Part shown: positions 43,157 through 59,807 of the stretch, in pieces
Numbering within the stretch: position 1 is the first letter of the stretch
Layout: every line of letters begins with the position of its first letter
From: a virus
Taxonomy: Duplodnaviria; Caudoviricetes
DNA: 64,000 nt
Virus record (IMG/VR): IMGVR_UViG_3300025428_000004
Location: 502-64,501 of that record
Direction: 5' to 3' (one strand)
Program-made: the position numbers and the translations under genes
Notes under the pieces: generated by a model
Databases searched by the model: none
Seen by the model: only the letters and a program-made list of their open reading frames with translations
What the model was told of the DNA's origin: nothing

Positions 43157-43391
43157 AGTCATCGCTATCCTCAGTCATGAGATCTACGCCTTACTCGATA
43201 TGCATGGTCTCGATGGAGAGGAAAGCCTGAAGGTCTTGGCTGCCGTTGCAACCAGGCTGCTTTGCTATGATGCTCCAGACCGTAGAACAGCCGAGCAATG
43301 GCGTGATGCATTGTCAGGCGTCATTTACCTGTCCATGTCAGAAGCCGGCTCTATCGGCTCCGCACGGTGGTCTGAAGCCAGGATGCACTGA
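43143..43391 (+). CDS. Hypothetical protein
   Basis: Coupled ORF between terS and terL. Confidence 0.55.
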   Translation: MNQSEVIAILSHEIYALLDMHGLDGEESLKVLAAVATRLLCYDAPDRRTAEQWRDALSGVIYLSMSEAGSIGSARWSEARMH

Positions 43392-45031
43392 TGAGCCTGG
43401 CGGATCTCGATCCAAGCTTTCGCAATATCGACGTTGACGAGATAGACGATGATCTGGTGCGCGCAAATTGCCGGGACGATCTCTATACGTTTATCCAGGA
43501 GTGCTGGCCGATCATCGAGCCTGCCATGCCGTTTTCGCCTAACTGGCATATACAGTTCATCTGCTATCACCTGGAGTCGATCACAAATGGCGTCACGCTG
43601 GATGATGGCACGCCATACAACAGATTGCTGATCAACATTCCCCCTGGCTGCATGAAGAGCCTGCTTGTGAACTGCTTCTGGCCGCTCTGGGAATGGGGGC
43701 CAAAGAACATGCCGCATATGCGCTATATCTGCGTCTCGCATAGCCAGGATCTGGCCATACGCGATGGCTTGCGCATGCGACGCGTTATCGAGAGCGAGTG
43801 GTATCAGAGGCTCTGGCCTCACGTTAAGCTAACCTCAGACCAGAACCAGAAGACCAGGTTCGAGAACACCTCGACTGGTTGGCGTATGGCCGCGGCTGCC
43901 GGTTCAATTACCGGCGCGCGCGCTGACAGAGTCGTATGCGATGACCCATTATCGGTGACGGATGCCATGTCTGCGCAGATCAAGCAGACAACAACAGACT
44001 GGTTCCTTGAGGCTGTACCAAGCCGTCTCTCTAGCCCCAGGGAAAGCGCCATCCTGGTGATATGTCAGCGCCTGGCAGAGGACGACATATCGGGCGTAAT
44101 CTTGGATAAGCAGCTCGGCTACGATCATATCATGCTGCCCATGCGCGCAGAGCTCTCGCGTATCATGCCAACCAAGCTTGGCTATGAAGACCCCAGGACG
44201 TACGAGGGACAGCTCCTGTTTCCTGATCGCTTCCCCGAAGAGGTTGTCGATCGCGATGAGCGCGTCATGGGCAAGTGGGCGACCGCTGGTCAAAACCAGC
44301 AAGCGCCTGTACCGCGTGGAGGAGGCATTATACCGCGTGACGCCTGGGTGCTACATGACAAGCCAGAGTATCCCAACTTCGATCTCGTCATCGGGAGTCT
44401 AGATACAGCCTATACGCTTAAAGAAGAGAACGATCCGAGTGCGATGACGGTGTGGGGTTTCTACACGGGCGGCGAGCAAACAGCGCAAGCACCGACCAGG
44501 TATATCAACAAGGATGAAGAGGTAGAAGCCGCTCTAAAGCGCCAATACACGCAAGAGCACACCAAGATGATGATGATCTACGCCTGGACAGAACGCCTGG
44601 AGCTATATGAGCTTGTCGAGCGTGTCGCAGACGTCTGCAAGAAATATCAGATCGACGTGCTCCTGATCGAGAACAAGGCTGCCGGCCATAGCGTGGCGCA
44701 AGAGCTGCGGCGTGTGTATGGCCATGAAGACTTTGGCGTCACGCTGATTGATCCAAAGAATCAAGACAAGCTCTCCAGGTTGTACAGTGTCCAGCATCTA
44801 TTCAACGATGGTCTGATCTCTGCACCAGATCGTCCCTGGGCCGACGTCACAATCAATCAGGTGGCAAGCTTTCCGAAAGCCAAACATGATGACCTGGTCG
44901 ATACGGTGAGTCAGGCGCTGACCTGGGCGCGCAAGAGCGGAGTCCTTATGCGCGGCAAAGAGCACACAAACATGCTCGATATCATGCGATCGCATTCTGG
45001 TAAGCCGCCACCGCCGTTGTACCCAGTATAG
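43391..45031 (+). CDS. terL: Terminase large subunit
   Basis: INIPPGCMKS, ITG.RAD..VCDDP, SLDTA, LIENKA.G, HDDLVD. Confidence 0.95.
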   Translation: MSLADLDPSFRNIDVDEIDDDLVRANCRDDLYTFIQECWPIIEPAMPFSPNWHIQFICYHLESITNGVTLDDGTPYNRLLINIPPGCMKSLLVNCFWPLWEWGPKNMPHMRYICVSHSQDLAIRDGLRMRRVIESEWYQRLWPHVKLTSDQNQKTRFENTSTGWRMAAAAGSITGARADRVVCDDPLSVTDAMSAQIKQTTTDWFLEAVPSRLSSPRESAILVICQRLAEDDISGVILDKQLGYDHIMLPMRAELSRIMPTKLGYEDPRTYEGQLLFPDRFPEEVVDRDERVMGKWATAGQNQQAPVPRGGGIIPRDAWVLHDKPEYPNFDLVIGSLDTAYTLKEENDPSAMTVWGFYTGGEQTAQAPTRYINKDEEVEAALKRQYTQEHTKMMMIYAWTERLELYELVERVADVCKKYQIDVLLIENKAAGHSVAQELRRVYGHEDFGVTLIDPKNQDKLSRLYSVQHLFNDGLISAPDRPWADVTINQVASFPKAKHDDLVDTVSQALTWARKSGVLMRGKEHTNMLDIMRSHSGKPPPPLYPV

Positions 45032-45117: not shown

Positions 45118-47601
45118 ATGTCTTTAACGCCTGGTCTGAAGCATAGCTTACCAGCATCAAACGGTCTTGGTGATCTCGCCCTTGGCGGTACAAAGATCGA
45201 CGATGCTCCGCAAGATAGTGCGGCGAACGATGATCTTCCCGATTTCGAAGGCAAGCCTCTTCTGCGCGTTGAGCATCCCGATGGCTCAATCACGATTAGC
45301 CTCGACGGCAAGCCTGTCTATGAAGACGATACGGCAGAGAAAGCCGCTGAGTGGTTCGCAAACCTTGTTGAGGACATTGACGGCAACGAGCTGTCACGCA
45401 TCGCCAACGATCTCCTACGCGGCATTGAAGACGACCTGGATAGCCGACGCGATTGGGTCGACGACCGCGCGCAAGGCATCCGACTCCTTGGCTTAAAGCT
45501 CGATAGCCAAACAGGCCAGGGATCTGGCGACGGCGCACCGATCGAAGGCATGTCCAAGGTCCGTCATCCGCTCTTGCTAGAAGCGGTGTTGCGCTTTCAA
45601 TCGAATGCTCGATCTGAATTGCTGCCGACTGACGGTCCGGTAAAGATCCGCGTAGACTATGCAGGCGGCTCAACAATCGAGAACGATGAGCTCGCCACAG
45701 ATCTTGAGGACGATCTCAACCATTACCTGACCGACACGGCGACAGAGTATTATCCAGATACGGATCGCATGCTGTTCATGCTTGGCTTTGGCGGCACAAG
45801 CTTCAAGAAGGTTTACTTTTGTCCGCTGCGCAATCGTCCTGTTTCTGAGTCAGTCGATGCCAATGACCTGATCGTCAATAACGCGGCAACGACGCTGGAA
45901 GACGCCAGGCGCGTCACGCATCGTGTGTTTATGCGTCCAAGCACTGTGAAGAGATTGCAGATCCTCGGCGTTTATCGCGACGTCGATCTGACTACGCCGA
46001 TGCAGTCAGACCAGGATAGTGTTCAGCAAGAAAAAGCTAACGTCCAAGGCATTGCGCCAGATGCAATGAACCCAGAGGACAGAGATCGTGAGATCTACGA
46101 ATGCTATTGCGAGCTCGATATCCTTGGCTTCGAGCACAAGCACAAGGGCAAAGAAACCGGGCTAGAGATCCCGTACCGCGTCACGATCGACGTCTCCAGC
46201 CGTGAGATCCTTTCCATTGTCAGGAATTATGATGAGCCGACGGGCGAAGCAGGCGATGTCCTTCCAAGAGCACGCAAGAATTTTGTCAAATACAGCTTTG
46301 TTCCCGGTCTGGGTTTTTACGATATTGGTCTCCTCCATATACTGGGCAACACGACGCAAGCAGTAACAGCAATGTGGCGCGAGATGCTCGACGCCGGCAT
46401 GTTTGCGAATTTCCCAGGCTTTCTGATTGCAGATAGCGGCGCGCGCCAGCAAACAAATCAGTTTCGTGTACCGCCTGGCGGCGCTGCGATGGTTCGCACT
46501 GGCGGCGCACCGATCAGCCAGGCTGTGATGCCGCTCCCGTATAAAGAGCCAGGGCCGGCCATGTTTAACCTCGTACAAGCGATGGTTGAAACAGGACAGC
46601 GCGTAGGCGGTACGGCAGAGATGGCTGTGGGCGAAGGCAGGCAGGATGCGCCTGTTGGCACGACGCTGGCGATGATTGATCAATCAACCAAGGTGATGAA
46701 CAGCGTTCATAAGCGTCTGCATCGCGCCCAGGCTGATGAATTCCGTTTGCTGGTTCGCACGTTCCGCGAGCATCCTGAGTCGTTCATGCACGATCAGTCG
46801 AGTCCGGCGCGCAAATGGACAGAACAAGAGTTTATCCGTGCGATCAACACATATGAGCTCGTACCGCAAGCTGATCCAAACACGGCGAGCCAACTACAGC
46901 GTCAGATGAAAGTCCTCGCGCTGAAAGAATTGCAGGCCGGCAATCCTTCTCTCTACGACCCGGTGGCAATCGACATTGCTGCGTTAAAGGCAATGGGCTG
47001 GAGCAATCCAGAACAATTCATGCAGCCGGAAGAAAAGCGCGATCAGCCGCCGCCAGAGATGCAGGCGCAGGTTGCGATGCTCAAGATCCAGAAGCAGGAA
47101 GCCGACGCCAAGAGCATGACGGCGCAGGCTCATATGCTGAAGGCGCAGAAGGATGGCGCACCGCAACCAGGTGGGCAGCCTGATCCTGTCGCAATGGCTG
47201 AATTGCAACTGAAGCAGCAAGAGCTCCAGGCCAAGATGGCTGAATTGCAGATGGAAGGCGAGACGCATCAGCGTGAGGCCCAGCTCAAGATGGCCGAGCT
47301 GCATGCAAACCGCCTTAACAGTGACAACGACATGCAGTCTCAGCATGCGACGTTGCATGCGCAGAATCTGGAAACGATCGCCAAGCATCAAGCTGCGATC
47401 ATTGACGCCACAAACCGTCAGCGTGACCGTGAAAGCAAAGAGCGCATTGCCGCTGTTCAGCTCGCAGAGAAGATTGCAGCAACGCCAGGTGGCGAGCAGG
47501 TTGCAAACCAATATCTCGACAAGGGCATGTTGCAGCGTCTTGAAGGTCAAGAAGCACCTGTCCCTGGTACAACACCGGCATATCCCAACGAGGGTGAGTG
47601 A
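45118..47601 (+). CDS. Portal protein (long podovirus type with coiled-coil barrel)
   Basis: 827 aa after terL; HPLLLEAV..FQ, LPYKEP, Gln-rich C-terminus. Confidence 0.88.
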   Translation: MSLTPGLKHSLPASNGLGDLALGGTKIDDAPQDSAANDDLPDFEGKPLLRVEHPDGSITISLDGKPVYEDDTAEKAAEWFANLVEDIDGNELSRIANDLLRGIEDDLDSRRDWVDDRAQGIRLLGLKLDSQTGQGSGDGAPIEGMSKVRHPLLLEAVLRFQSNARSELLPTDGPVKIRVDYAGGSTIENDELATDLEDDLNHYLTDTATEYYPDTDRMLFMLGFGGTSFKKVYFCPLRNRPVSESVDANDLIVNNAATTLEDARRVTHRVFMRPSTVKRLQILGVYRDVDLTTPMQSDQDSVQQEKANVQGIAPDAMNPEDRDREIYECYCELDILGFEHKHKGKETGLEIPYRVTIDVSSREILSIVRNYDEPTGEAGDVLPRARKNFVKYSFVPGLGFYDIGLLHILGNTTQAVTAMWREMLDAGMFANFPGFLIADSGARQQTNQFRVPPGGAAMVRTGGAPISQAVMPLPYKEPGPAMFNLVQAMVETGQRVGGTAEMAVGEGRQDAPVGTTLAMIDQSTKVMNSVHKRLHRAQADEFRLLVRTFREHPESFMHDQSSPARKWTEQEFIRAINTYELVPQADPNTASQLQRQMKVLALKELQAGNPSLYDPVAIDIAALKAMGWSNPEQFMQPEEKRDQPPPEMQAQVAMLKIQKQEADAKSMTAQAHMLKAQKDGAPQPGGQPDPVAMAELQLKQQELQAKMAELQMEGETHQREAQLKMAELHANRLNSDNDMQSQHATLHAQNLETIAKHQAAIIDATNRQRDRESKERIAAVQLAEKIAATPGGEQVANQYLDKGMLQRLEGQEAPVPGTTPAYPNEGE

Positions 47602-48203
47602 TGATCGTCATGGACGATTTCCTCCCAGCGTCTCAGGCCGATGAGCTTGAGTCGCTTCTCACCGGCTATGATTTCCAATGGTATTTTCTGAATTTCGGGA
47701 CATGCTCAAAACAGGATATTGAGACGCATCCAGAGTATGGCTGCAACGATCGCCCACAGTTTTCGCATATGCTGTGGCATTATCAGAACAAAGGCATCTC
47801 GAACTATTTCGCCAAGTTCAAGCCGCTGATTGACGCGCTTGAAGAGAAGACGGGCAAGAGATTCGCGTCACAACTCGTTCGCATGAAAGCGAATATGGTG
47901 ATGCAAGATGCAACTGTCGGCGTCGATGATCATCATTTTCCGCATCCAGATCTGAAAACACCGGCAGAGACATTGCTGTATTACGCCAACGACGCGGATG
48001 GCGACACGTTTCTGTTTGAAGAGCGTGATTTCACTGATGAGCCATTGAAGCTGGCGCATCGCATAAGCCCGAAAAAGAACAGGGCGATCCTTTTCAGATC
48101 AGACCGATTGCATGCAGGCGCATCACCGCGTGCAGCAAAATATCGAACAGTCGTCAATGTGCTGTTCGACAAACAAGCAGAGATGGAAGGGGTTGCGGCA
48201 TGA
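47598..48203 (+). CDS. 2OG-Fe(II) dioxygenase
   Basis: R.KAN, PHPD, LYY.ND.DGDT, PKKNR..LF....HA..SP...R.VVN. Confidence 0.85.
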   Translation: MMIVMDDFLPASQADELESLLTGYDFQWYFLNFGTCSKQDIETHPEYGCNDRPQFSHMLWHYQNKGISNYFAKFKPLIDALEEKTGKRFASQLVRMKANMVMQDATVGVDDHHFPHPDLKTPAETLLYYANDADGDTFLFEERDFTDEPLKLAHRISPKKNRAILFRSDRLHAGASPRAAKYRTVVNVLFDKQAEMEGVAA

Positions 48204-48907
48204 GCGATAAGGCAGATCCGATGCAGATTTACATTGGCAATTTTTGGCCGTTCTTTTTTACCGGTCTGAGGCAGTTCCAGTATTCAACCAAGGATGGCGC
48301 TGTCGCTCCCTACACCACGAATTTTTATTTCGACAGCAACCACAGCTCGATGGCGCAGGAGAATTACTCCGCTGATGCGCAGTTCCTCAACAAATGGTTC
48401 ATGCAGATCCGCACAGCCTTCGGCGTTGCTGAGTGGCGTGATGACTATCCAGATGGTCGTATCATTGTGATGGATCCGCCAATTGGCTGGGGCAATGTCG
48501 AATATGTGCCTGGCAATTACTACAACAAGGTCGAAACAGATCCTTGGCAGTGTCAGCCTTTCACGATCGCATCTGCCGAGCAGACGGTTGTGTATGAAGA
48601 GTTCCTGCCGACGTTCACGACGTGGCACGGTATTGAGTACAAGAATGTCTTGGTCTTCTCGTATGCCCAGAAGTGGGGAACGAAAATCAGCGGCGCACGA
48701 TATTGGATGGCCGAGAACCTTGGTCCGGTCGGCGTAGCATTCATTATCCAGAATCCTGATGGCACGTTCACGACATGGGAACGCTCCGACGCAAAGGTCA
48801 TCGAGTTCAACGAGCAGGAAAAGAACGAGATGTTTTTGTCGCGCGCCTCAACTGAGTCGCTCAAGATCAGCGTCGCTGACTACCTCGCGCAGAAGGAAAC
48901 AGCGTGA
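48200..48907 (+). CDS. Hypothetical protein, paralogue A
   Basis: GVAEWRDDYP...VMDPPIGWG shared with next gene. Confidence 0.75.
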   Translation: MSDKADPMQIYIGNFWPFFFTGLRQFQYSTKDGAVAPYTTNFYFDSNHSSMAQENYSADAQFLNKWFMQIRTAFGVAEWRDDYPDGRIIVMDPPIGWGNVEYVPGNYYNKVETDPWQCQPFTIASAEQTVVYEEFLPTFTTWHGIEYKNVLVFSYAQKWGTKISGARYWMAENLGPVGVAFIIQNPDGTFTTWERSDAKVIEFNEQEKNEMFLSRASTESLKISVADYLAQKETA

Positions 48908-49566
48908 TGACTGCAACTGTCAGCATGAAGGATTACTGGCCGCTATTCACGCACGGCGGCAAGATCACTTACTACTACACGGGCATCAAGCCTGAGACGC
49001 CGCATCTCTATGCCGAGATCTTCTACGACGCCGAGAAAAAGGCGATGTGCTACAAAGAGTACGACGTCGCCAAAGACGGATCGTATTCCTGGCGCGATAG
49101 CTGGTTCTATGAATATCGCGAAGGCTTTGGCATTGCCGAGTATCGTGATGATTATCCATCGCCTGGCAAATGGTGGGGCGACACCAAGGTTGTCGTCATG
49201 GATCCGCCGATAGGTTGGGGCGATGTTCAACAAATTGGCAGCGTTTACGAGAATGAGCCTGCGTTTGTGTTCGATCAGTGCATACCGCCGAGCGTTGCCT
49301 ATGGCGATCAGCGCGTAGAGTTCGAGCGCAAGTACGATGAGTATCAGAATGCGCGCGCTTTCTGGATCGACGTTGTTCGCTTCCGTTATTACCAGGCCTG
49401 GAATGGCGGCAATGCAAGCGGCGCAATCTATTGGTTTGCGCCTGCACGCGGTCCAGTGACGCAGCAATTCCTTGCACGCCTGCCAAGCGGTGAAGTCGTT
49501 TACTCCGACATCTACAGCGCAGCGGTCAGCCTGGTTAATTGGCCTAAAGGCGAAGAGGTGGCGTGA
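48904..49566 (+). CDS. Hypothetical protein, paralogue B
   Basis: GIAEYRDDYP...VMDPPIGWG. Confidence 0.75.
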   Translation: MMTATVSMKDYWPLFTHGGKITYYYTGIKPETPHLYAEIFYDAEKKAMCYKEYDVAKDGSYSWRDSWFYEYREGFGIAEYRDDYPSPGKWWGDTKVVVMDPPIGWGDVQQIGSVYENEPAFVFDQCIPPSVAYGDQRVEFERKYDEYQNARAFWIDVVRFRYYQAWNGGNASGAIYWFAPARGPVTQQFLARLPSGEVVYSDIYSAAVSLVNWPKGEEVA

Positions 49567-52500
49567 TGTCAGGCTCTGGCGGCTTATTTGGATTTGGTGG
49601 CTTGAATGGTGGGAGCATGTCTTCCAGCCATAACTCGCAAGCCATGCGCAACAATGTTGCAGGTCCAGTAGGCGGTACGCGTATGGAGTCGCCAAGCTTT
49701 GGTGATTACAGCACGGACCTAGCCAGCCAGGGCAATCTCTTGGACGAGTCTAACTTGACAGGGCAGGCGAATATGTCTGGCTTCCTGTCAGGTTTGGCGA
49801 ACGGTTACGCTAATGGCGGACCGATACCTGCGCATCATCACCAGGCAATCCTCGATGCGCTGCATGTTGTTCAGCATCATATGAAACGCGGTGGCGTTGC
49901 GCCGCATAACATCGACCAGCTCGCTAACATGACGCCGATTTCGACGGGCCCAAATGGGATACCGAAGAATTACGATTTCACGAATAGCATGCAGGTCTAT
50001 TACGACAAGCTTAACTCCGGCAACATGACGCCCAATGCCGCCAATGGTTATGCGGCCAACTTCTCGAAAGAAGCACAATCACCAACGGGCCTTAACTTTG
50101 GCCAGGCGCAGAATAACGGACCGGCAATCGGCCAGGGACAATGGGATGGTCCGCGCAAGCAAGACCTGATCAACTATTCGAATGCCAATTTCAACAACTC
50201 TGACGGTCCAGCATGGAAGCTGCCCCAGGCGCAAAATCAATTCTTCAACGAAGAGCGTACCAATAACCCCGTCATTGCGCGCGCTGATAACCAGATCCAG
50301 CAAGCGACAGATCCGCATCAGGCCACAGCACTTGTCGGCGCTGAATGGGAGAAGCCAAAAAACCTTGCTGCTTCTATGCCGCAGCGCCTTGCCTACAGCG
50401 ACGCTATTACTCAGCGCGTAAACAACGGCAATCCTTTCCCGCCTGGTCAGTGGGAAAAGTCGATGTCCAACTACGACTACAATAGCGGTACGCCAAACGG
50501 CGTGTCTGATAACCGCATTGATCAGATCGCAGCCAAGGGCCCGATGCAGCGCCCTGACGACCTAGAAGCATTGGCCGCTAAAGCTGATGCCGCCGCTGGT
50601 CGCGTGCCGATGCCGCCGCCGCGTCCTGCCGATATCGACAGGATGAAGGGCAATGTGCCGTCTGGCGGAGATCTGCCATCGCGCGGCATGACGCCTGAGT
50701 CAGATCTGCCTGTACGCAAGCCTGATGGCTTGGACTCATCAGACGCGAGTGATGTGATTGATGATGGCGGCGATAGCGTTGACGTCGCTGATAGCGGTTC
50801 AGACATTGCTGATGCGATAGATTTTGCAAGCAGAGGCGGACGCATCGGTTTTGCTGATGGCGGCAGTGACGATCTTGATCCGCGTGACAAGAACAACGGT
50901 GCGCTTGGCGAGTCAGTAGAGTTTGCGCCAGCCCCAGAGCGCAGATCCATCGAAGAGCATTATCCAAAGCCAGACAACGGCACAGATCTCTACGCCATCG
51001 CGCATGATCCGCGCGAAGAGCCGATGAAACGCTACGGCGCAATGGGCGCAGGCATGGCTGGCGATATTGCCAATGGCATGTGGGATCAGGTCAAGAAGCC
51101 TGGAGAGGCGTTGCGTGGCGAGTATGATCCAAGCGGCGGTAGAGGCGTTGGTGCATCTGACCAGGCAGTGAAGGATGCCGTCGGCATCTCGATGATGGGC
51201 CTTGGTTCAGGTACGGCGTTTAACAAGGTGCCCGATGGCGCAATCGGCATGTTCGCCGGCCAACGTGCAAAGACGGCAGACCTCGATGCATTAAAGCGCG
51301 CGCAAGAGATGGCGACGGGCACAACAAAGCCAAAGCCATACGGTGATTTGTTTGAAGGGCAGATACAAGAGAAGCCTGCCTATATGGACAAGATCACGCG
51401 CGATACCGGCTGGCATGCCTGGGGTCCAGACGGCAAACCTGATTGGGCGTTTGAGATTGCTGACAACACGGCGAAGTACAACCCGAAAGCAGGCCTGGCG
51501 CATTCGATTGAGGCTGATCTCCCGTCGTTGCAAACCCAGAACCCGAATGTCTCAGAACCTGCGCTGCGTCGTTATCTGGAAGACAGAGCAAACAAGTCTG
51601 GCTTCATGGCTCCGCTTCATACGATGCTCGATCATCCAGAGCTGTATGACGCCTATCCGCATCTTAAAGACACGCTCGTCTATATTGATCCGCCAAACAA
51701 AAGCAGCGGACGTCAGAAGCTGCTCGATCCAAGCGCGCGCGGCGCGTATCACCATGAGTCTTACCCAAAGCCCGATGGCACAAGAGAGAATGTCATTGCG
51801 CTGAAAAAGGCTGTCGGTATGTCGCCGAATGAAGGCCTGACGACGCTTCTGCATGAGATCCAGCATCACATCCAAAAGCACGAAGATTGGCAAGGCAAGG
51901 GCGACAACTGGAAGAATGCCGGCGAGAATCCTGCAACGAGTCCTCACTGGGAACGCTGGAATAAGTCAGACAAGACTGGTTCAGAGCCCAATAAAACATA
52001 CAGCCAGGTAATGACCTACCTGCTTAATGGCGGCGAGGCACAGTCGCGCAATACGCAACTGCGTCAAAAGATGACGATGGAAGAGCGTCGTCTGGATGAG
52101 AACCATCCATACCTGACGATCCCATTAACGCCGTATGAGCGCAACAAAAAGACCGAGCACTTTGCTGATCCGGCAGACATCCATTATCGCGCTGATGGCG
52201 GCGCTGTTCCAAGACGCGGCTATGCAACGAATGGCGCAGTAGACGGTGAAGTGTCGTTCGCGCCAGACGATATGCCTGCGCCAGAAGAGTCGCATAAGAA
52301 GTACGCCAACGACCTTCCGATCATGGCGCGCGACAATCCGCAAGAGCACATCAACGAAGCACTCGATATCGCAAACCGTCCGCAACCCGACGCGCATTCA
52401 TTCGTGCAGCAAGAGCTCAATACGGGTGAGAAACAGGTGCCGCAATACGATCCTGACGCTGGCGCTAAGACCGCAACCAAGGCGGCTCTTACGGGTTACG

Positions 52501-54065
52501 GAATGACGAATGCTGGCGGCGTACAAGACGCGCTCGGCGCAATGCCAGATGGCGAAGGCGGTTATAATCCGTCGCTATACGACAATATCCGCAAGGGCAA
52601 TTACGCTGACGCTGGCTTCCAGGCGATGGGCGCGCTTGTGCCTGGCGCAGGCGGTGTGGCTGCCAAAGTCGCCAAGGGCGCTAAGGCTCTCAAGGGCGCT
52701 GATGCTGTTGCTGATGCAGCCAAAGCTGCCAATGCGGTTGCTGATACAACAAAGGTCGGCGAAGCGTTCAAGCCTGTTGCGCCAAAGATCATACGCCCCA
52801 ACGAGATTGATACGCCAACGATCCGCCATATCCTGGGCGGCAATGGCTATACGGATATTCCAGAAAGCGCGTTGTTCTTTGATCGTATGAATGAGCCTGC
52901 CAGGATTCAGACGCCATCGACGCTCGCCGGCAATTTCCGTGACGCTGTCAAAGAGCATCTGAATATGAGTCGCATGGATCGTGCGATTAACAGCAAGGCT
53001 GCGCTCGATAAGCTTCTCCCATACATCGGCAAGAAGGATGGCGAGCCAATTGATTTGCTGACGCAAAACGCCAAGCTTGCAAAGTCAGCCAAAGAGCTCG
53101 GACCGATTATGCCAGGCGGCCTTGGTATCGACACCTGGGGTCTGTCACTGTCTCCTGCGATGCAGTGGGGCAAAATGAATCTGTGCTCGCATCACGCACC
53201 ATGCTGGCTTGACTGCCTGGGCAAAAAGTCAGGCGGCTACGCGCTCGAAGGCGGCATGAACGATAGTTACAAGTGGAATCTGCCGCGCGGTAACAGCATG
53301 GCGCGCACGATCGCCATGATGCAAGAACCTCGCGCATTTGCGGTACGGTTGTTGGATGAGCTGAACAGTACGAGTCACAAGGCCAACATGAAAGGCGCAT
53401 TGCTTGGCGCGCGCCTGAACACGCTTTCTGACTTGCACCCATCCGTATGGAAACCGTTCCGCGATGCCCTGCCAGAGGCGACGTTCTACGACTACACCAA
53501 GGTGCCAGGTCTGGTTGCGCGTGATTCAAACCATCATCTGACGCATTCGAGCTCCGGCATATCAACGAAAGCGGTACACAATCCGAATGCTAATTGGCTC
53601 GGACCAAACGGCATGCGCGCGCGATTAGATGCCGGCGACAATGTTGCCGTACCGTTCAGTCAGAAGAATGTTAAGCCAGAGTGGATCCACGACGAAGAAA
53701 CCGGTCGTCGGTACAAGGTTGTCGATGGCGATACGCATGACTTTAGACCGCATGACAAGACGCCAGATGGCGAGCAAGGCGTGATCATCGGCCTGGGCAA
53801 AAAGAACCAGGGTGTGTCTGCCGAATTAGCGCCGCGCAACTCGAAAGGCTTCTACTGGGATTACAACCCAAAGAAGCATGGCGACACCGTCTCTGTTCCT
53901 GATCAGAACCAGTTTGCGAAGGGTGGACGCGTTAAGCCGCGCGTCGATGAAGCTACATTCATGGAACAATTCCACAACCACGATCACTTTGTCGATACCG
54001 GCAAGAAAGAGATCGAGGATTGGTGGACGTTACCAGTAACAAAAGGATCTGCGCGCAAGCGTTGA
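49563..54065 (+). CDS. Polyvalent head-region protein: tail-lysozyme-like + LPD23/HExxH zincin-like + Gp88-like Cys-rich domain
   Basis: N..KE...G.GQW.G.R..WEKP (about 49990-50420); TGW..G.DGK..FEI.D..LDHPELY.AYP.L..LLHEIQH (51240-52130); CSHHAPCWLDC..RLN.LSD..FYDYTK..DGD..DFR (53050-53900). Confidence 0.75.
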   Translation: MMSGSGGLFGFGGLNGGSMSSSHNSQAMRNNVAGPVGGTRMESPSFGDYSTDLASQGNLLDESNLTGQANMSGFLSGLANGYANGGPIPAHHHQAILDALHVVQHHMKRGGVAPHNIDQLANMTPISTGPNGIPKNYDFTNSMQVYYDKLNSGNMTPNAANGYAANFSKEAQSPTGLNFGQAQNNGPAIGQGQWDGPRKQDLINYSNANFNNSDGPAWKLPQAQNQFFNEERTNNPVIARADNQIQQATDPHQATALVGAEWEKPKNLAASMPQRLAYSDAITQRVNNGNPFPPGQWEKSMSNYDYNSGTPNGVSDNRIDQIAAKGPMQRPDDLEALAAKADAAAGRVPMPPPRPADIDRMKGNVPSGGDLPSRGMTPESDLPVRKPDGLDSSDASDVIDDGGDSVDVADSGSDIADAIDFASRGGRIGFADGGSDDLDPRDKNNGALGESVEFAPAPERRSIEEHYPKPDNGTDLYAIAHDPREEPMKRYGAMGAGMAGDIANGMWDQVKKPGEALRGEYDPSGGRGVGASDQAVKDAVGISMMGLGSGTAFNKVPDGAIGMFAGQRAKTADLDALKRAQEMATGTTKPKPYGDLFEGQIQEKPAYMDKITRDTGWHAWGPDGKPDWAFEIADNTAKYNPKAGLAHSIEADLPSLQTQNPNVSEPALRRYLEDRANKSGFMAPLHTMLDHPELYDAYPHLKDTLVYIDPPNKSSGRQKLLDPSARGAYHHESYPKPDGTRENVIALKKAVGMSPNEGLTTLLHEIQHHIQKHEDWQGKGDNWKNAGENPATSPHWERWNKSDKTGSEPNKTYSQVMTYLLNGGEAQSRNTQLRQKMTMEERRLDENHPYLTIPLTPYERNKKTEHFADPADIHYRADGGAVPRRGYATNGAVDGEVSFAPDDMPAPEESHKKYANDLPIMARDNPQEHINEALDIANRPQPDAHSFVQQELNTGEKQVPQYDPDAGAKTATKAALTGYGMTNAGGVQDALGAMPDGEGGYNPSLYDNIRKGNYADAGFQAMGALVPGAGGVAAKVAKGAKALKGADAVADAAKAANAVADTTKVGEAFKPVAPKIIRPNEIDTPTIRHILGGNGYTDIPESALFFDRMNEPARIQTPSTLAGNFRDAVKEHLNMSRMDRAINSKAALDKLLPYIGKKDGEPIDLLTQNAKLAKSAKELGPIMPGGLGIDTWGLSLSPAMQWGKMNLCSHHAPCWLDCLGKKSGGYALEGGMNDSYKWNLPRGNSMARTIAMMQEPRAFAVRLLDELNSTSHKANMKGALLGARLNTLSDLHPSVWKPFRDALPEATFYDYTKVPGLVARDSNHHLTHSSSGISTKAVHNPNANWLGPNGMRARLDAGDNVAVPFSQKNVKPEWIHDEETGRRYKVVDGDTHDFRPHDKTPDGEQGVIIGLGKKNQGVSAELAPRNSKGFYWDYNPKKHGDTVSVPDQNQFAKGGRVKPRVDEATFMEQFHNHDHFVDTGKKEIEDWWTLPVTKGSARKR

Positions 54066-54100
54066 TAGCGGGACGCCGCTTTAATCTCTGGAGAAGTACG

Positions 54101-55045
54101 ATGTCGTTAATTACAGGAAAACAATCCCAGGAGAATGCGAGAGCAAAAGCTGCGCGTCTTACTGGCGGATCGAATTCGCAAAAGCCTTTCTATGGAGCTG
54201 GCGTATTTGATGCAGATAAGAAAACCGGCAAACAGCCAACAACGAAGCCTAAATTCAATGTTGGCGGCAAGGTCGAAGGCAAGGCTGCCGAAGCGCGCGC
54301 CGATCGCGTTGCACGCAAAGCTGGCGGCCGTATTAAAGCGAAGACAACAATCAATGGGCTGACATCTGAGAAGACTTCAAAGATCGCCACAAAGGTTGGC
54401 TCGCCAAAAAGCATGTCTTTACAGAAAGGCGCTGATGACGCGTTGAAGGTCTCTGCCGTCAAGAAAGCATTGACGCCGAAGAAAGACGTTAAGCCGATGA
54501 AGGCTGCGCCAGAGACAAAGCCTGTGGACGTCAAGGATCCAGAGTTCGACGATAAAGCAATTGCCGATACGATGGCGTCTGATGAAGACACAAACGACAG
54601 CGGTGAAGCGTTGAAGCGCGGCGGTCGCGCCAAGCGTGCTTGCGGCGGTACGATGAATGACGGCCCAGACAAAGAGAACGACAATGACGCTGACGATAAG
54701 ATGAATCGTGGCGGTCGTGCAAAACGCGCATTCGGCGGTACGCTCAATGGCGATCATAAAGGCAAAGGAAAAAAGAGTGGCAAGACGAATATCAATATCG
54801 TCATTGCTGCGCCTCAAGGCGGACAAGACGCGGCTGCGCAAGCACCGCAATCTGCTCCCCCTCGCGCTGTTCCACCGCCAATGATGCCACCGCCAGGCGC
54901 AGGTGCTCCTCCAATGCCGCCTCCAGGTGGAATGCCAATGCCTCCAGGCGCAGGCGCTCCTCCTCCAATGCGCAAGGCTGGCGGACGGGTAATGGCTGGC
55001 GCTGGTTCTGGACTTGGTCGCTTGCAGAAAGCGCGTGCAATCTAA
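54101..55045 (+). CDS. Basic, low-complexity head-region protein with repeated xxGG motifs
   Basis: GGAG SD; FNVGG, RKAGG x2, LKRGG, RACGG, MNRGG, RAFGG; Pro-rich tail. Confidence 0.75.
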   Translation: MSLITGKQSQENARAKAARLTGGSNSQKPFYGAGVFDADKKTGKQPTTKPKFNVGGKVEGKAAEARADRVARKAGGRIKAKTTINGLTSEKTSKIATKVGSPKSMSLQKGADDALKVSAVKKALTPKKDVKPMKAAPETKPVDVKDPEFDDKAIADTMASDEDTNDSGEALKRGGRAKRACGGTMNDGPDKENDNDADDKMNRGGRAKRAFGGTLNGDHKGKGKKSGKTNINIVIAAPQGGQDAAAQAPQSAPPRAVPPPMMPPPGAGAPPMPPPGGMPMPPGAGAPPPMRKAGGRVMAGAGSGLGRLQKARAI

Positions 55046-55087
55046 GAGTAGTCTCTCGCGTTAAGGGCGGACATCTGGCGAGAGCTG

Positions 55088-55125
55088 GAGCGGATCGGAG
55101 CAGGGGGTTCTGATCCGCTCTTTCC
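55088..55125 (+). terminator. Terminator-like hairpin
   Basis: gagcggatcggagc/gttctgatccgctc stem followed by tttcc. Confidence 0.5.
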
Positions 55126-55141
55126 ACAAGCAGGGATTCAT

Positions 55142-55354
55142 ATGGGAAGCTTTACGAGATTTGACGTCTACGAGAACGAGCTGCGCGTTCTTCTTGCAGA
55201 TGAGCTAGACCGCCTGAAAGACGAGATGGCCACAGGTCTGTTGAAATCTTTTGAAGATTATCGGCACGTTACTGGAAAAATCGTTGGATTGCGCACAGCC
55301 TTGGAGCTGATGGATGAGGCAGCTCACATCACGAACAAGAAGATTGGCGCGTAA
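55142..55354 (+). CDS. Small helical head-assembly protein
   Basis: G....FE.YR...G.I.GL motif; typical position before GroES-like gene. Confidence 0.65.
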   Translation: MGSFTRFDVYENELRVLLADELDRLKDEMATGLLKSFEDYRHVTGKIVGLRTALELMDEAAHITNKKIGA

Positions 55355-55380
55355 ACGAGTATCCTAACCAGTAGTGGACA

Positions 55381-55782
55381 ATGGCGTATGTAAAGATCGA
55401 GCACGAGGTCGATCCAAAAGAAAAACTATTAGCAGACATTGGAGATCTATCAGGCATACAGGTCTTCAACAATAACGTCCTGGTTGCTGTGTATCAGCGC
55501 CCGACGACGATGACGCTTGGCGGCAAGAAATTTCACCTCTCTGACAAGACGGTCGATGAAGATCGTTATCAGAGCAAGGTCGGGCTTATCGTAAAGCTCG
55601 GTTCAAGCGCATTCCACGATGAAGATGGAACATGGTTCCAGGGCATCGAAGTCAAACTGCACGATTGGGTCGTACTGCCACCGGCTGCCGCAACGAGCAT
55701 GCTGGTGAACGGCGTTCTCTGTCGTCTTGTCGCAGATACGTCGATCAAAATGCTGATCAACGACTGTGACACGGTTTACTGA
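55381..55782 (+). CDS. GroES-like co-chaperonin
   Basis: VLVA, GLIVKLG..AF, DWV, RLV.D..I. Confidence 0.7.
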   Translation: MAYVKIEHEVDPKEKLLADIGDLSGIQVFNNNVLVAVYQRPTTMTLGGKKFHLSDKTVDEDRYQSKVGLIVKLGSSAFHDEDGTWFQGIEVKLHDWVVLPPAAATSMLVNGVLCRLVADTSIKMLINDCDTVY

Positions 55783-55793
55783 TGGAGGGCGCT

Positions 55794-56711
55794 ATGGCTG
55801 ACGAAAAGAATGCTGACGCTGATCCAAAGGCAGAAGCTGAAGACAACATCGACGATCAAGTAACCGACTCTGTCTCGCAAGAAGATGACGGGATTGATCC
55901 TGAAGACGGCATCGAAGAGCTAAAACGCAGTCTCGCAGAGCAAAAGCGCCAGGTAGAAGAGGCGCAGCGTTTGCGTGCAGAGGCAGAACAGCGTGCGTAT
56001 CAAGCGCAGATAGAGGCGCAGCGCAGCTCGCAAGAGGCCAAGAACGCCAACTACAACCAGATTGTTGGCACGATCAATCAGCTTAGTGAACGTGAGAAGT
56101 CTCTCATGGCTGCCTGGGCTGAAGCCAAGAGCATGGGCGATTACCAGAAAGAAGCAGAGATCCAGAAAGAAATGCTGGTCACTGCGAATTACCTGGAGCG
56201 TCTCAACAAAGGCAAGGATGCGCTAGAGAACGAGATGAAGCGTCCGGTCCAACCGGTTGCTCCTCCAATTGCTGACCCAATCGAAGATGCTGCATCGAGG
56301 ATGTCGCCATCGTCGGCTGCGTGGATTCGTGCGCATCGCGACTTCCTATCAACGGGTCGCAATGACTTGCTTGTGAAAGCGGCGCATACCAAGTCGCAAG
56401 CACTCGGCATCACTGTCGATACGCCTGATTACTTTGCCTTCATCGAAGAAGAGGTCGGGTTGCGTGGCGCACCGCGTCGCAGCGCAAAACGTGACGACGA
56501 TTACGAGGACGATGATGGACCAATGTCGAGCGCATCGGCTCCCCAGGCGCGTCGATCTGTATCCCCGCCATCTGCGCCTGTTTCCAGGGGCGGTCAGCGT
56601 AGAGGTACGATCACGCTGTCGGCAGAGGAGCGTGAGATCGCAAAGATATCCGGCCTCACTGATGAGCAATATTACGCGAACAAAATGCGCGACAAGAAAA
56701 GGGCGAGCTAA
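55794..56711 (+). CDS. Capsid scaffolding protein
   Basis: Acidic N-terminus, coiled coil, C-terminal LS.EE.EIAK..GLT.EQY. Confidence 0.75.
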   Translation: MADEKNADADPKAEAEDNIDDQVTDSVSQEDDGIDPEDGIEELKRSLAEQKRQVEEAQRLRAEAEQRAYQAQIEAQRSSQEAKNANYNQIVGTINQLSEREKSLMAAWAEAKSMGDYQKEAEIQKEMLVTANYLERLNKGKDALENEMKRPVQPVAPPIADPIEDAASRMSPSSAAWIRAHRDFLSTGRNDLLVKAAHTKSQALGITVDTPDYFAFIEEEVGLRGAPRRSAKRDDDYEDDDGPMSSASAPQARRSVSPPSAPVSRGGQRRGTITLSAEEREIAKISGLTDEQYYANKMRDKKRAS

Positions 56712-57274
56712 TGAGCGAAGAAGACAAGATCAAGGTGGTGCTCAAGCGCCGTCACGAAAGCGATGAAAACGTCGCGCCAAAACAAGCGGGGCCAGCGCGT
56801 CCGCCATTGCGCGAAGAAGATTCGCTTGCATCGGCTAAACGACGCGCGCAAGAGCTCCGCGATCATGGGCTAAAGTTCCATGCAAGCGAAGACGAATTCG
56901 ACGTCTCTCATATTGAGAAGCCAGGCTGGAAATATCAGTGGTGTACCTGGTCCGTCTATGAACAGCGCCAGGTAACAAACATGATGTCCGTTGAGGCGCG
57001 TGGGTGGCAGCCTGTACCGCTCGAAGAGCATCCAGAAATGATGCCACGCGATTACGATGGCGAGGCCATTATGCTGAAAGGCTCGATCCTCATGCGCATT
57101 CCGCGCGAGATCTACGACGAGTACACCCAGGCAGAGCTGAAAGCCGCTCGTGATCAGGTACGCTGGAAAGAGCAAGCAATTGCCGGTACGCCTGATGGCA
57201 CATTGCCGCGCGACCATGCGCAAGCGAAGCCACGAATTAAGAAGGGTTATGCGCCGATACCGATTCCAGATTGA
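56711..57274 (+). CDS. Head-region hypothetical protein
   Basis: PGW.YQW, GW.PV...HPE, LMRIP. Confidence 0.7.
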   Translation: MSEEDKIKVVLKRRHESDENVAPKQAGPARPPLREEDSLASAKRRAQELRDHGLKFHASEDEFDVSHIEKPGWKYQWCTWSVYEQRQVTNMMSVEARGWQPVPLEEHPEMMPRDYDGEAIMLKGSILMRIPREIYDEYTQAELKAARDQVRWKEQAIAGTPDGTLPRDHAQAKPRIKKGYAPIPIPD

Positions 57275-57361
57275 TATCGGATTCGACATGAAGGGCGGCA
57301 TCGTTGCCGCTCTTTACAGCTCGGTGGACTAATAATAATTTTCAACGAGCTAAATGCTGTC

Positions 57362-57474
57362 GCGCCTCCCCGCTGTGAGGCGTTAAACCCAGAGCTGCAC
57401 TGTCGGCTCTATCATTAGGCTACAGGATTCGCCCCGCTGTGTGATGACTGAGTCTTCCGTAATAGGGAGAATCC
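57362..57474 (+). promoter_or_regulatory. Structured leader of capsid operon
   Basis: Two hairpins with identical CCCGCTGT loops; GGATTC/GAATCC stem adjoining the SD. Confidence 0.45.
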
Positions 57475-57477
57475 GTC

Positions 57478-58071
57478 ATGGCGAACTTGAATACGCCGTT
57501 TGGGTTCCTACAATATCGCGGCACCGGTTCGTCACCGACTTATGAGCAAGTCGTTGCGCGCATTGCTGCAAACAATACAACTCCAATCTTCTACGGCGAC
57601 GTCGTTGACTTCGTGACGCCTGCTAATGGCTACATTAAGCAAGGCACGCCAGGCACAGACACGATCGCTGGCATCTTCATTGGCTGCAAATATCTTTCTG
57701 TCAGCCAGAAGCACACTGTTTGGTCCCGCTATTGGCCGGGCTCTGACGCTAACGGCGATGTTGAGGCTTACCTCATCAACGATCCGAATGCGCAGTTCCT
57801 CGTACAGGCTGGCGCGACAGCAATTGACGCTTCGAAGATCGGTCAGAACATCCAGTTCAATGCTGGCGTTGGCAACGTGAACACCGGTACGTCCGGCGCT
57901 TATGTTGAGAACGTAGGTTCGGCTGCGACTCTTCCTTTCCGCATCGTTGCTCTCGACACGTTCCCACCCGGAGCGCCTGGCACCGATCCGACGACACCGT
58001 ACAACCGCGTGATCGTCGCCTTCAACAACGTCATCACGCGCAATAACGGCGCTGTGACCGGCATCGCGTAA
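57478..58071 (+). CDS. Capsid decoration/auxiliary protein
   Basis: MAN..TPFG, IF.GD.V, G.F.GC.Y, DP...F.VQ; directly before MCP. Confidence 0.7.
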   Translation: MANLNTPFGFLQYRGTGSSPTYEQVVARIAANNTTPIFYGDVVDFVTPANGYIKQGTPGTDTIAGIFIGCKYLSVSQKHTVWSRYWPGSDANGDVEAYLINDPNAQFLVQAGATAIDASKIGQNIQFNAGVGNVNTGTSGAYVENVGSAATLPFRIVALDTFPPGAPGTDPTTPYNRVIVAFNNVITRNNGAVTGIA

Positions 58072-58085
58072 GGGGAGAATGAAAC

Positions 58086-58997
58086 ATGTCAATTAATCTC
58101 TCGCAGATTAAAGACCTGCTCCTTCCTGGCCTTCGCGGCATTGAAGGAAAGTACGAGCAGATCCCAAGTCAGTACGACAAGATCTTCACCAAGCATGACT
58201 CGAAAATGGCTGTCGAGCGTACCGCTGAAATGCGTTACCTCGGTCTCGCTCAGTTGAAAAACGAAGGCGGTCAGACAGCGTTCGACAATGCGTCAGGTGA
58301 GCGTTTCGTATATAATCAAGAGCATACGGAACTGGCTTTGGGCTACAGTATAACGCGCAAGGCTGTGGACGATAACCTCTACAAGAGTCAGTTCGCTCCA
58401 TCCAACCTGGGCCTGATGGAATCTTTCGCGCAAACGAAAGAGATCTATGGCGCAAACTTGCTCAACACTGCAACGGTTTATAACCCAGCGGTTGGCGGTG
58501 ACGGCCAGGCTCTTTGCTCGTTCAACCATCCGATCGACGGTGGCGTTGTTGCTAACCGTCCTGCAACGGACGTTCAGCTCAACGAAGCAACATTGCTTAA
58601 CGCAATGATCGGCATCCGTACGGGCTTCCGTGATCAGGCTGGCCTGAAGGTGTTTGCGCGCGGTCGTCGCTTGATCGTTCCACCTGCACTTGAGCCAACT
58701 GCTATTCGTCTTTTGAAGACGCAATTGCGCCCAGGCACAGCGGACAACGACGTCAACGCGATCGTCGAGACCGCAGGTGGTTTGCCAGAAGGATTCATGA
58801 CGGCAGACTTCCTAACGTCACCATCAGCTTGGTTCTTGCTCACCAACATCGACGGCCTGTCGTACATGGAGCGCGTAAAGTTCGAAACTGACATGAGTGT
58901 CGATTTCGTCTCAGATAATCTCTTAGTGAAGGGATATGAGCGGTATTCGTTCGGGTATTACAATTTTCGTAGTATCTGGGGATCTTTCCCTGTCTAA
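58086..58997 (+). CDS. Major capsid protein
   Basis: L.PGL, K.EG, ALG.SIT, GDG.AL....HP, LIVPP.L, ERYSFG....R. Confidence 0.88.
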   Translation: MSINLSQIKDLLLPGLRGIEGKYEQIPSQYDKIFTKHDSKMAVERTAEMRYLGLAQLKNEGGQTAFDNASGERFVYNQEHTELALGYSITRKAVDDNLYKSQFAPSNLGLMESFAQTKEIYGANLLNTATVYNPAVGGDGQALCSFNHPIDGGVVANRPATDVQLNEATLLNAMIGIRTGFRDQAGLKVFARGRRLIVPPALEPTAIRLLKTQLRPGTADNDVNAIVETAGGLPEGFMTADFLTSPSAWFLLTNIDGLSYMERVKFETDMSVDFVSDNLLVKGYERYSFGYYNFRSIWGSFPV

Positions 58998-59004
58998 GAA
59001 ACAC

Positions 59005-59034
59005 GGCGGGAGCCTCTGATTTCATGCTCCCGTC
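59005..59034 (+). terminator. Hairpin after capsid gene
   Basis: ggcgggagc/gctcccgtc stem; weak U-tract. Confidence 0.4.
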
Positions 59035-59121
59035 TTCAATATTCCCGGGATTTAGCCGCACAGACAGTCCGGGCTGACGCTGTGCAGACTGCGCGGCCAA
59101 CCCTCGCACAGGAGGTTTATA

Positions 59122-59562
59122 ATGCCTAGAACCCACTTCTCTGGCCCGATCACGGCAGGAAGCATCCGTGATACGTCAGGCGTAACAGTCGGTGTAGATG
59201 TATCAAATCGCGGTTATGCTACGCTTACGCAAGTCGCCAAGATCACTGAAACTGGCGTTGCTCAAGCAATCAACATTGTCATTCCAGCAAACAGCACAAT
59301 CGTCGCCATCAGTTCTTATGCTGAGACTGACTTTGCATCTCAGTTATCACTTGGCGTGACAGCGGCTGCGAATGAACTTGTGACTGATGGCATCTGTGCT
59401 GCGGGTGTTACGCAGATCAATGCTAGCACGGACATATGCGCGATGGTTTGGCTGAATACAGGGCCAAACGACTTGCAGGTTTACGCCAAGAGCGCTGCTT
59501 CCGGCATAGGCGTTGGGTACATCTCCGTCACGTATGCGCAGGCGCTTAACTTCGTTGAATAA
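59122..59562 (+). CDS. Minor structural protein
   Basis: AGGAGG SD; THFSGP start. Confidence 0.7.
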   Translation: MPRTHFSGPITAGSIRDTSGVTVGVDVSNRGYATLTQVAKITETGVAQAINIVIPANSTIVAISSYAETDFASQLSLGVTAAANELVTDGICAAGVTQINASTDICAMVWLNTGPNDLQVYAKSAASGIGVGYISVTYAQALNFVE

Positions 59563-59573
59563 GGATTACGATC

Positions 59574-59807
59574 ATGGGTGAATACAAAGGCAAAGATCAC
59601 TTTCCTGAAGCTGAGTCCAAGGAAGAGTCATTCAAAAAGGGTGGCAAAGTGAAAAAGAAAGCTGGCGGTAAAGTTTCCAAAAAGGAAATGAAATGCGAAG
59701 GCGGCAAAGCCGCTGCGCGCGCGGATCGTCCTGCACGCAAGTCAGGCGGTGCTGTGTTCTCTGCGGCTGCTTCTGGTACGCCTCGCGGAAAACAGTCTCA
59801 CTACTAA
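59574..59807 (+). CDS. Small Lys-rich protein with repeated xxGG motifs
   Basis: FKKGGKV, KKAGGKV, RKSGGAV. Confidence 0.7.
   Translation: MGEYKGKDHFPEAESKEESFKKGGKVKKKAGGKVSKKEMKCEGGKAAARADRPARKSGGAVFSAAASGTPRGKQSHY

Follow-up and report, generated by a model that had tools for sequence, protein, structure and literature searches.

Proteins that share no fold can be brought into a common shell by a short peptide, and the nearest precedents for loading of this kind, in phage heads or in HK97-type shells, would be the capsid-targeting sequence (CTS) of phage T4, the Dar proteins of phage P1 and the cargo peptides of encapsulins. In T4 a short CTS is common to internal head proteins that are otherwise unrelated, an ADP-ribosyltransferase among them, and relatives of T4 vary the cargo behind similar tags; the CTS is an N-terminal propeptide of ~10 residues, which is removed by a dedicated serine protease, gp21, that recognizes L/I-X-E and also cuts the capsid protein (PMC9026906). 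Internal head proteins of P1 are co-ejected with the DNA, having been loaded hierarchically onto the capsid-bound, DNA-facing DarA/Hdf (PMC12810830). Encapsulins dock unrelated enzymes inside an HK97-fold shell by means of short conserved peptides, with some of the cargo having disordered termini that contain Gly-rich consensus motifs (PMC8346489), and for the polyvalent proteins of phages, processing by embedded zincin-like peptidases has been proposed (PMC5512222). Here we describe a short Gly-Gly motif, the GG tag, that recurs in the predicted internal proteins of the phage represented by the IMG/VR record IMGVR_UViG_3300025428_000004, which is rated complete; the window analyzed comprises 64,000 of its 64,501 bases (positions 502 to 64,501). 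To our knowledge, the route by which polyvalent effectors and ejection proteins enter phage heads has been described only for T4 and P1, and a single motif of 7-10 residues common to all of the predicted internal proteins of a huge clade would offer a concrete, mutable handle on it.

Across the family, the tag has the consensus [Y/F/M]-[A/K]-x-G-G-x-[V/I], and its strongest forms are phi-K-K-G-G-K-V in the basic proteins and G-G-R-I-G-Y-A-D-G-G in the enzymes, the latter being a double-GG form in which six strand-like residues are enclosed between the two GG pairs. When the 83 open reading frames (ORFs) called in the window were searched with the strict pattern GG[RK][IV], 12 matches were found against 1.94 expected, and none of 2000 within-protein shuffles, which do not keep local low-complexity composition, reached this number. 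All 12 fall within six ORFs, two each in P0001, P0003, P0004 and P0005, three in P0002 and one in the ORF at 48904-49566; the last of these (THGGKITYY) and one of the two in P0005 (TVGGKIAQ) are probably chance matches, the usual flanks being missing from both. Four Gly-rich fibre-like proteins with 14, 13, 42 and 10 GG dipeptides have no strict match, which bears out the expectation, implied by an earlier note on this DNA, that the motif would be enriched over a Gly-rich background. The capsid, portal and scaffold-like proteins of the window are likewise without tags. A crude hydrophobicity profile placed the tag positions anywhere between percentiles 8 and 83 and was uninformative on whether they lie in linkers.

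Because the regular expression had been picked post hoc from these data, replication was sought in relatives, using as the main comparison set 80 loci around capsid homologues with a capsid identity of 83-88% and as a second set 38 related loci retrieved through an unrelated neighbor gene, the GNAT-like gene at 10216-10755. MW202675.1, an independent complete genome, contains 11 strict matches against 2.1 expected (0/1000 shuffles), 10 of which are located in three large post-portal proteins, the P0002 homologue (five matches), a 197-aa (amino acid) protein of the ejection cluster and a P0005-like C terminus. Across the 80 loci, the strict tag is absent from 80 capsid (24,284 aa), 66 scaffold-like (19,701 aa) and 21 portal (11,376 aa) proteins, so that the earlier observation that capsid and portal do not repeat the motif extends from the window to its relatives, and it is also absent from 71 of the 187-aa, 75 of the 197-aa and 55 of the GroES-like head proteins as well as from fibre proteins. 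The 17 P0002 homologues recognized by BLAST in the same loci hold 52 strict matches. In 168 non-redundant tag contexts, Lys is found at position -2 in 137, position -3 is occupied by R, Y, F, M or L and a second GG is enriched at +8/+9; these flanking positions were not used in the selection and are conserved nonetheless, which counts for a specific function of the tag. The exact peptide GGRIGYADGG gave 24 pattern matches in IMG/VR, 21 of them in loci with recognizable homologues of the genes of the window phage, and it is located in post-portal proteins or P0004 homologues even where the portal identity is only 34-39%. Searched with a degenerate pattern, the 30-nucleotide stretch encoding this peptide occurs in 22 distinct DNA versions (two with AGC, Ser, at the third codon), and this variety of synonymous codons points to selection on the peptide, the DNA itself not being conserved. 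Looser forms of the tag are present in HTVC027P (gp41, gp42 and gp47), DSL-LC04 and Pag-Yong1, the last of which has near-identical Synechococcus/Planktothricoides isolates. A distant portal homologue of 904 aa and 38% identity (L105, 6036-8750, minus strand) has a tag, ASGGRVNDAD, near the end of a long C-terminal helical tail, and ~30 other portal homologues are without one.

The three domains that the earlier note had read in P0001 agree with Pfam, which places Phage_lysozyme2 at residues 146-282, LPD23 at residues 603-638, within a region that contains the HExxH string HEIQH, and GP88 at residues 1166-1432, and the tags lie in four inter-domain or terminal linkers (Table 1). All of the P0001 peptides that the note had quoted were recovered on re-translation, at the positions listed in the table. 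The YANGGPI...MKRGGV arrangement before the lysozyme-like domain recurs in a relative (L006), and residues 881-939 show a weak resemblance to the C-terminal cassette of the P0005 family described below (hhalign with alignment A4, E 7e-4, probability 26%). Comparison with related loci suggests that P0001 is assembled from separable parts. In L006, another protein, of 1224 aa, begins with a counterpart of residues 1-462; in L004, the GP88 module (residues 947-1488) has a gene of its own, which encodes 654 aa and carries a tag close to either terminus, indicating that the tag travels with modules; and the GP88 core occurs as a stand-alone gene of ~425 aa in L025, L080 and L034. Residues 463-946, which hold the HExxH/LPD23 region (window 50950-52400), have no BLAST homologue in the related loci L002-L110 and, by this comparison, are a private insertion of the window genome. 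Gly-rich N termini are seen in both P0001 (MSGSGGLFGFGGLNGG, 49563-49620) and P0004 (MGMGAGGGGGGQQG, 10769-10810), and the L006 homologue of P0001 retains its own version.

The post-portal slot is the same in the 80 related loci, and its enzyme content differs between close relatives, in which the domains ART-PolyVal, PBECR5, InPase, GP88 and DUF7178 are found, so the earlier suggestion of interchangeable enzymes stands. The statement that the motif brackets each domain proved too broad: it holds for P0001 and for L046, where tags at 769 and 975/984 flank the ART domain (Pfam 796-963), but not for P0005 with its one tag, for the last ~850 residues of P0004, which have none, or for the GP88 proteins of L080 and L034. 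In the same way, the expectation that domains are gained and lost between tags was confirmed only modestly, homology breakpoints lying at most 40 aa from a tag in 24.2% of cases compared with 17.6% for random positions (0/500 randomizations as high).

The two basic proteins, P0002 and P0003, belong to no Pfam, PHROG or NCBIfam family. An Atlas model of P0002 has a predicted template modeling score (pTM) of 0.10 and a predicted local distance difference test score (pLDDT) of 0.40. From the N termini of its homologues (MSL/MSE...), the protein likely starts at the ATG at 54101 rather than the TTG at 54020, and the longest ORF, from this TTG, would overlap the end of P0001. P0002 homologues are only 25-50% identical where the capsid is 83-88% identical, and the tags are nonetheless kept; under a broader definition of the family (n = 32), at least one strict tag is present in 30/32 and at least two in 27/32. 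In the P0003 family, with identities of 40-73% to the window protein, the only residues invariant across 33 sequences (alignment A2) are M1, K21, G23, G24, R55, G58, G59 and A65, which amount to the start codon, both tag cores and one Ala. Tandem tags in the basic proteins are spaced 8 residues apart, and the string AA.ARADR.ARK.GG.[IV], which the earlier note had reported as common to P0002 and P0003, is indeed present in both. Many relatives encode two further conserved small basic proteins 3' of the P0003 homologue (for example L007 10155-10424 and L011 3311-3487), the first of ~80-90 aa with the C terminus ...SRINKSLRKWDC and the second of ~55 aa containing ...AAGRPYPNLVDNAAAAR...

Among the ejection-type proteins, distinct P0004 homologues are tagged in 18/18 cases, against a mean of 3.3/18 in shuffles and 2/16 for upstream tail proteins, with a tag that is typically [YF]-A-x-G-G-[LV]-V-[GP]-R and lies mid-protein; in P0004 itself, the earlier count of about 6 was generous, there being 2 strict and 3-4 loose forms. 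Directly upstream of this gene, a GNAT-like acetyltransferase (phrog_1249, 10216-10755) is found in all 38 loci retrieved through it, and a GNAT-like gene is also annotated in Alcaligenes and Roseobacter relatives. P0005 has the PF18763 ddrB-ParB domain at residues 625-747 (E 2.8e-30), and in distinct homologues the GG is placed 40-70 aa before the C terminus in 17/17, with the strict form in 13. An alignment of the C termini of this family (A4, n = 19) has the GG invariant together with L78, T93, E94, L97, P100, D101, A107, L108 and A111, and the invariant columns of both the P0003 and P0005 families persist although the proteins are otherwise only 22-55% identical. The resulting cassette of ~50 aa, R-K-S-G-G-x-V ... 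T-E-x-M-L-x-x-P-D-D-A-V-V-Q-A-L-x-x-A, is carried on variable bodies (window 20554-20715; homologues in L111-L148), and a region search of the P0005 C terminus against a set of 5.8 billion proteins returned only itself. In the cargo protein of L043, three tags are followed by a D-D-P-T-V-Q-[QR]-A-L helix that resembles the one in the cassette. A second "helix" motif beside the tags (..V.xAL..), suggested by L043, L046, L048 and the P0005-family C terminus, was rejected, with 1 occurrence in the window against 0.72 expected and 264/500 shuffles as high, and hhalign of the cassette against L043, P0004 and L046 gave no alignment beyond the tag core.

Table 1. Tag carriers, their tags and other features of the window
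Feature	Position	Strand	Description
P0004, ejection-type protein A, 1838 aa	10769-16285	+	N-terminal PHROG "DNA ejection protein" region and GH108/endolysin domain
P0004 tags FAARGGRIGRSIGG, LKRGGRV	12884-12925, 13730-13750	+	Long linker between ejection region and endolysin domain
P0005, protein B, 1482 aa	16270-20718	+	ddrB-like ParB domain
P0005 single tag, RATGGRI...PDATVVRALDIASQQL	20554-20715	+	Conserved C-terminal cassette
Tyrosine integrase	22202-23227	minus	
Helix-turn-helix (HTH) + S24 repressor	29240-29989	minus	Peptidase_S24
Large terminase	43391-45031		
Portal	45118-47601		
P0001, polyvalent protein, 1500 aa	49563-54065	+	Four genes downstream of the portal gene; Pfam domains
P0001 tag pair YANGGPI...MKRGGV	49806-49898 (49806-49826, 49881-49898)	+	N-terminal to lysozyme-like domain; helix-like HQAILDALHVVQHH between the two
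P0001 tag FASRGGRIGFADGG	50823-50864	+	Enzyme-type double-GG form; GGRIGYADGG in relatives
P0001 tag YRADGGAV..YATNGAV (52185-52241)	52185-52379	+	Followed ~45 aa on by NPQEHINEALDIANR
P0001 tag FAKGGRV	53913-53933	+	47 aa before the C terminus
P0002, basic protein, 314 aa	54101-55045	+	Isoelectric point (pI) 10.1; Gly/Pro-rich, predicted disordered
P0002 clear tags (five)	54254-54274, 54314-54334, 54611-54649, 54701-54739, 54971-54991	+	
Scaffold-like protein, 309 aa	55782-56711	+	Coiled-coil, untagged; very acidic N terminus, 18 D/E in first 45 aa
Major capsid protein, 303 aa	58086-58997	+	Mu gpT-like, HK97-type, untagged; Phage_capsid_4, Mu-like_gpT, phrog_371 major head protein
P0003, basic protein, 77 aa	59574-59807	+	pI 10.0; tags FKKGGKV, KKAGGKV, RKSGGAV

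The carriers are predicted, by homology and gene position, to be internal or ejected virion proteins, and we tentatively favor the possibility that the GG tag serves to dock or incorporate them. It would mark the predicted contents of the head, namely two large ejection-type proteins, swappable post-portal effectors and a pair of basic, disordered proteins that evolve fast and consist for the most part of tag copies. The aromatic residue at -3 and the aliphatic residue at +2 would meet across a Gly-Gly turn, and this small hairpin would bind one conserved receptor in the procapsid, so that any enzyme module bearing the tag could be taken into the head and then leave it together with the DNA. 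The hydrophobic residues conserved to either side of the GG, the double-GG form, tags only 4-7 residues from a C terminus (such as YRDGGKVRIHF-stop in L006) and the tandem tags all fit binding and avidity better than cutting, and we also count the separate scaffold-like gene and the absence of a recognized protease as pointing to docking. The receptor could be formed by the capsid protein on its inner face, by the acidic scaffold-like protein or by the multivalent basic proteins gathered as a hub on the DNA; the capsid protein is a candidate because no protein of the family is more conserved, and the scaffold-like protein may be an alternative. A complex prediction of the capsid (A1, 107 rows) with P0003 (A2, 33 rows) gave an interface score (ipSAE) of 0.00 in both runs, made without controls, and speaks neither for nor against binding. 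The ORF at 9822-10205, which the earlier note had put forward as the reader of the tag, has no Pfam, PHROG or NCBIfam match, and nothing singles it out. A loading tag of this type would explain the free swapping of anti-host enzymes and would offer a simple means of placing foreign proteins inside capsids.

Several observations weigh against docking. The strict tag is missing in 18 of 32 non-redundant large post-portal proteins (most of the 18 having [YF]-x-x-G-G-x-V variants), and the stand-alone GP88 proteins of L080 and L034 carry no tag at all; either the tag is not required, or these proteins are not packaged. Caulobacter phage RW has no tags and Roseobacter phage CRP-902 one, despite having the same head genes, which implies that the conserved head proteins need no tag. 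The relaxed consensus, like the strict one, was defined post hoc. We found no virion proteome of a relative, and proteomics terms were absent from both PMC10149686 and PMC9599517. Finally, the distribution of the tag is also that of a maturation-protease site in T4.

This last point leads to the main rival of docking, according to which the tags are sites for a maturation protease that cuts the polyproteins after G-G into effectors and the basic proteins into peptides, with the P0005 cassette being a targeting propeptide that is removed. Tags in all of the internal proteins, between the domains of P0001, around the ART domain of L046 and in many copies in small core-like proteins mirror the substrates of T4 gp21 (PMC9026906), and Gly-Gly-X is a known viral polyprotein consensus, that of pS273R from African swine fever virus (ASFV; PMC10308890). 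The position of the P0005-family tag ahead of its conserved cassette and the excess of breakpoints near tags would also suit cutting, which, if true, would reveal a new phage maturation protease. We nonetheless judge it unlikely. Scans that covered 38 of the 83 ORFs with Pfam (the remaining 45 being mostly small), 30 with PHROGs and 9 with NCBIfam found no protease family other than the S24 domain of the repressor, in agreement with the earlier note, which had recognized no conventional prohead protease, and the conserved 187-aa head protein has no sequence match in the PDB and, in the Atlas, none but viral hypothetical clusters. The HExxH region of P0001, being without a homologue in related loci, cannot be a family-wide reader or protease. 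The capsid has neither tag nor propeptide, and the scaffold-like protein has its own gene; this combination of a separate scaffold with an untagged capsid is the protease-free assembly pattern of P22 and T7. Known proteases specific for GG have a hydrophobic residue at P4 and little prime-side specificity, a pattern that the conserved +2 residue and the -3 aromatic do not match. Cutting at tags near the C terminus or in tandem would give pointless fragments, and many multi-domain proteins have only one tag. For the cleavage proposed in the earlier note, we thus obtained neither evidence nor a candidate enzyme. A combination of address and scissor, in which the tag with its neighboring helix docks the module and an unrecognized GG-specific protease then frees effectors and DNA-coating peptides, would find its nearest parallels in the cores of ASFV and adenovirus and would let any enzyme be captured by gaining about 10 residues, but we regard it as quite unlikely.

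Tags might instead contact DNA or neutralize its charge, the basic proteins being histone- or protamine-like and the tagged enzymes riding on the DNA to be co-ejected with it. P0002 and P0003 are suitably basic, Gly-rich and disordered, their form of the tag is K/R-rich, and DarA/Hdf of P1 turns a positively charged face toward the DNA (PMC12810830). Such a role appears rather improbable, however, as the most sharply conserved form, GGRIGYADGG, with one R and one D, is not basic, what is invariant is the G-G with its hydrophobic flanks rather than charge, and the entry of proteins into the procapsid ahead of the DNA would be left unexplained. It is more doubtful that the tags serve as flexible hinges, as points at which threading through the portal and tail begins or as strands that pair during ejection. 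A tag at a conserved position in every homologue of ejection-type proteins A and B and the strand-like segment within the double-GG form would be expected of these roles, whereas the conserved aromatic and aliphatic flanks are unneeded for them and small proteins of 77 to about 130 aa, with many copies, require no unfolding. That the motif has no function, as a by-product of Gly-rich basic linkers or a junction at which the DNA recombines when modules are swapped, is highly improbable. Its occurrence in low-complexity regions and the modest association with breakpoints speak for such a reading, but this is largely refuted by the tag-free state of other Gly-rich proteins of the genome, by the invariant columns of the diverged P0003 and P0005 families, by the conserved flanks and by the many codon versions of a DNA stretch that is not itself conserved. 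Of known peptide motifs, three were rejected because their register or flanks do not fit: RTX-type GGxGxD repeats, the AT-hook and double-glycine leader peptides. An AT-hook has an R-G-R-P core and an RGG-box clustered R-G-G repeats; the tag forms, K-x-G-G-K-V or G-G-R-I-G-Y-A-D-G-G, include no R-G-R-P, and RGG is seen only as part of the tag.

By gene content, the window genome reads as that of a temperate podovirus. It encodes SU10-type adaptor proteins and collagen-like fibres, and the tyrosine integrase and the HTH+S24 repressor make this member of the clade look temperate. Its head genes run from the portal through inserted genes to a GroES-like protein (133 aa), the coiled-coil acidic scaffold-like protein, the 187-aa and 197-aa proteins and the capsid, an order common to Pelagibacter phages HTVC027P/023P, Roseobacter phages CRP-901/902, Caulobacter phage RW and Planktothrix phage Pag-Yong1, with portal identities of 30-35%. 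The nearest deposited genome is MW202675.1 (portal identity 64%), which was the sole match among GenBank phages in a tblastn search with a 34-aa tag context; megablast of the region gave no match. The clade is very large: in public data, the capsid protein matches more than 7,413 clusters at 90% identity and 2,583 representatives at the 50% level, and at least 597 IMG/VR stretches match. Its members are very abundant phages of fresh and marine waters. In collections of "bacterial" genomes, capsid homologues (L149-L167, n = 19) all lie on contigs in freshwater metagenome-assembled genomes (MAGs) from many unrelated phyla, and since several of these contigs, at 54-62 kb, are as long as an entire phage genome, they look like wrongly binned phage contigs; an inference of the host from these 19 matches failed. 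In the early region, a 287-aa ORF (36560-37423) matches the OMP_b-brl outer-membrane beta-barrel family (E 1.6e-08) and may be a moron. Between an EndoV-like gene and P0001 lie two paralogous neighbors, 48200-48907 (235 aa) and 48904-49566 (220 aa), which have the motif MDPPIGWG in common, no family match and no genuine tag.

When set against the systems with which we began, the GG tag resembles the T4 CTS in being a very short peptide on unrelated internal proteins, through which variable effectors would be loaded and ejected. It differs in that its copies lie within proteins or at their C-terminal ends, often several per protein, with none in the capsid homologues of the 80 loci, and the Pfam, PHROGs and NCBIfam scans of the head-module ORFs found no prohead protease gene of the gp21/HK97 type or any other. 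In P1, the name DdrB is attached to the ParB-type domain present in P0005, and DarA/Hdf would be a model for P0002 and P0003 as a hub; P1, however, is a myovirus whose DarA is proteolytically processed, and the portions of PMC12810830 drawn on here describe no short motif shared by the Dar proteins. General library scans turned up no DarA/Hdf homologue, no search having been aimed at DarA or Hdf. Encapsulins have in common with this phage an HK97-type shell protein, but their peptides are of the TVGSL type, mostly C-terminal and single, and they are cellular compartments without DNA or ejection. Repeated G-G sites in core polyproteins and basic core proteins link the tag to the Gly-Gly-X sites of ASFV (PMC10308890). 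ASFV and adenovirus are eukaryotic viruses with their own clan CE cysteine protease and a hydrophobic residue placed elsewhere, and no Ulp1/adenain-like protease of this clan was found among the 38 ORFs scanned with Pfam. Adenovirus core proteins, too, have repeated G-G sites.

On their domain content and gene position, the carriers themselves are members of the polyvalent-protein class of Iyer et al. (2017). P0001, P0005 and their relatives combine several unrelated domains per polypeptide, among them LPD23, ddrB-ParB, ART-PolyVal, PBECR5 and InPase, and their genes lie among late genes linked to the portal and terminase, as described for this class (PMC5512222). The main text of that work contains neither "glycine" nor "linker", and a shared tag and two basic multi-tag proteins fall outside its description. 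Literature searches with the tag peptide strings returned nothing relevant, and those on Gly-Gly cleavage of phage virion polyproteins nothing on phages. By analogy, then, the GG tag would work most like the T4 CTS, the Dar loading of P1 and the encapsulin peptides, yet it belongs to none of these systems, because its sequence, its position, the missing protease and the two multi-tag basic proteins all differ. The tag itself is real, sharply conserved and spread across the whole clade.

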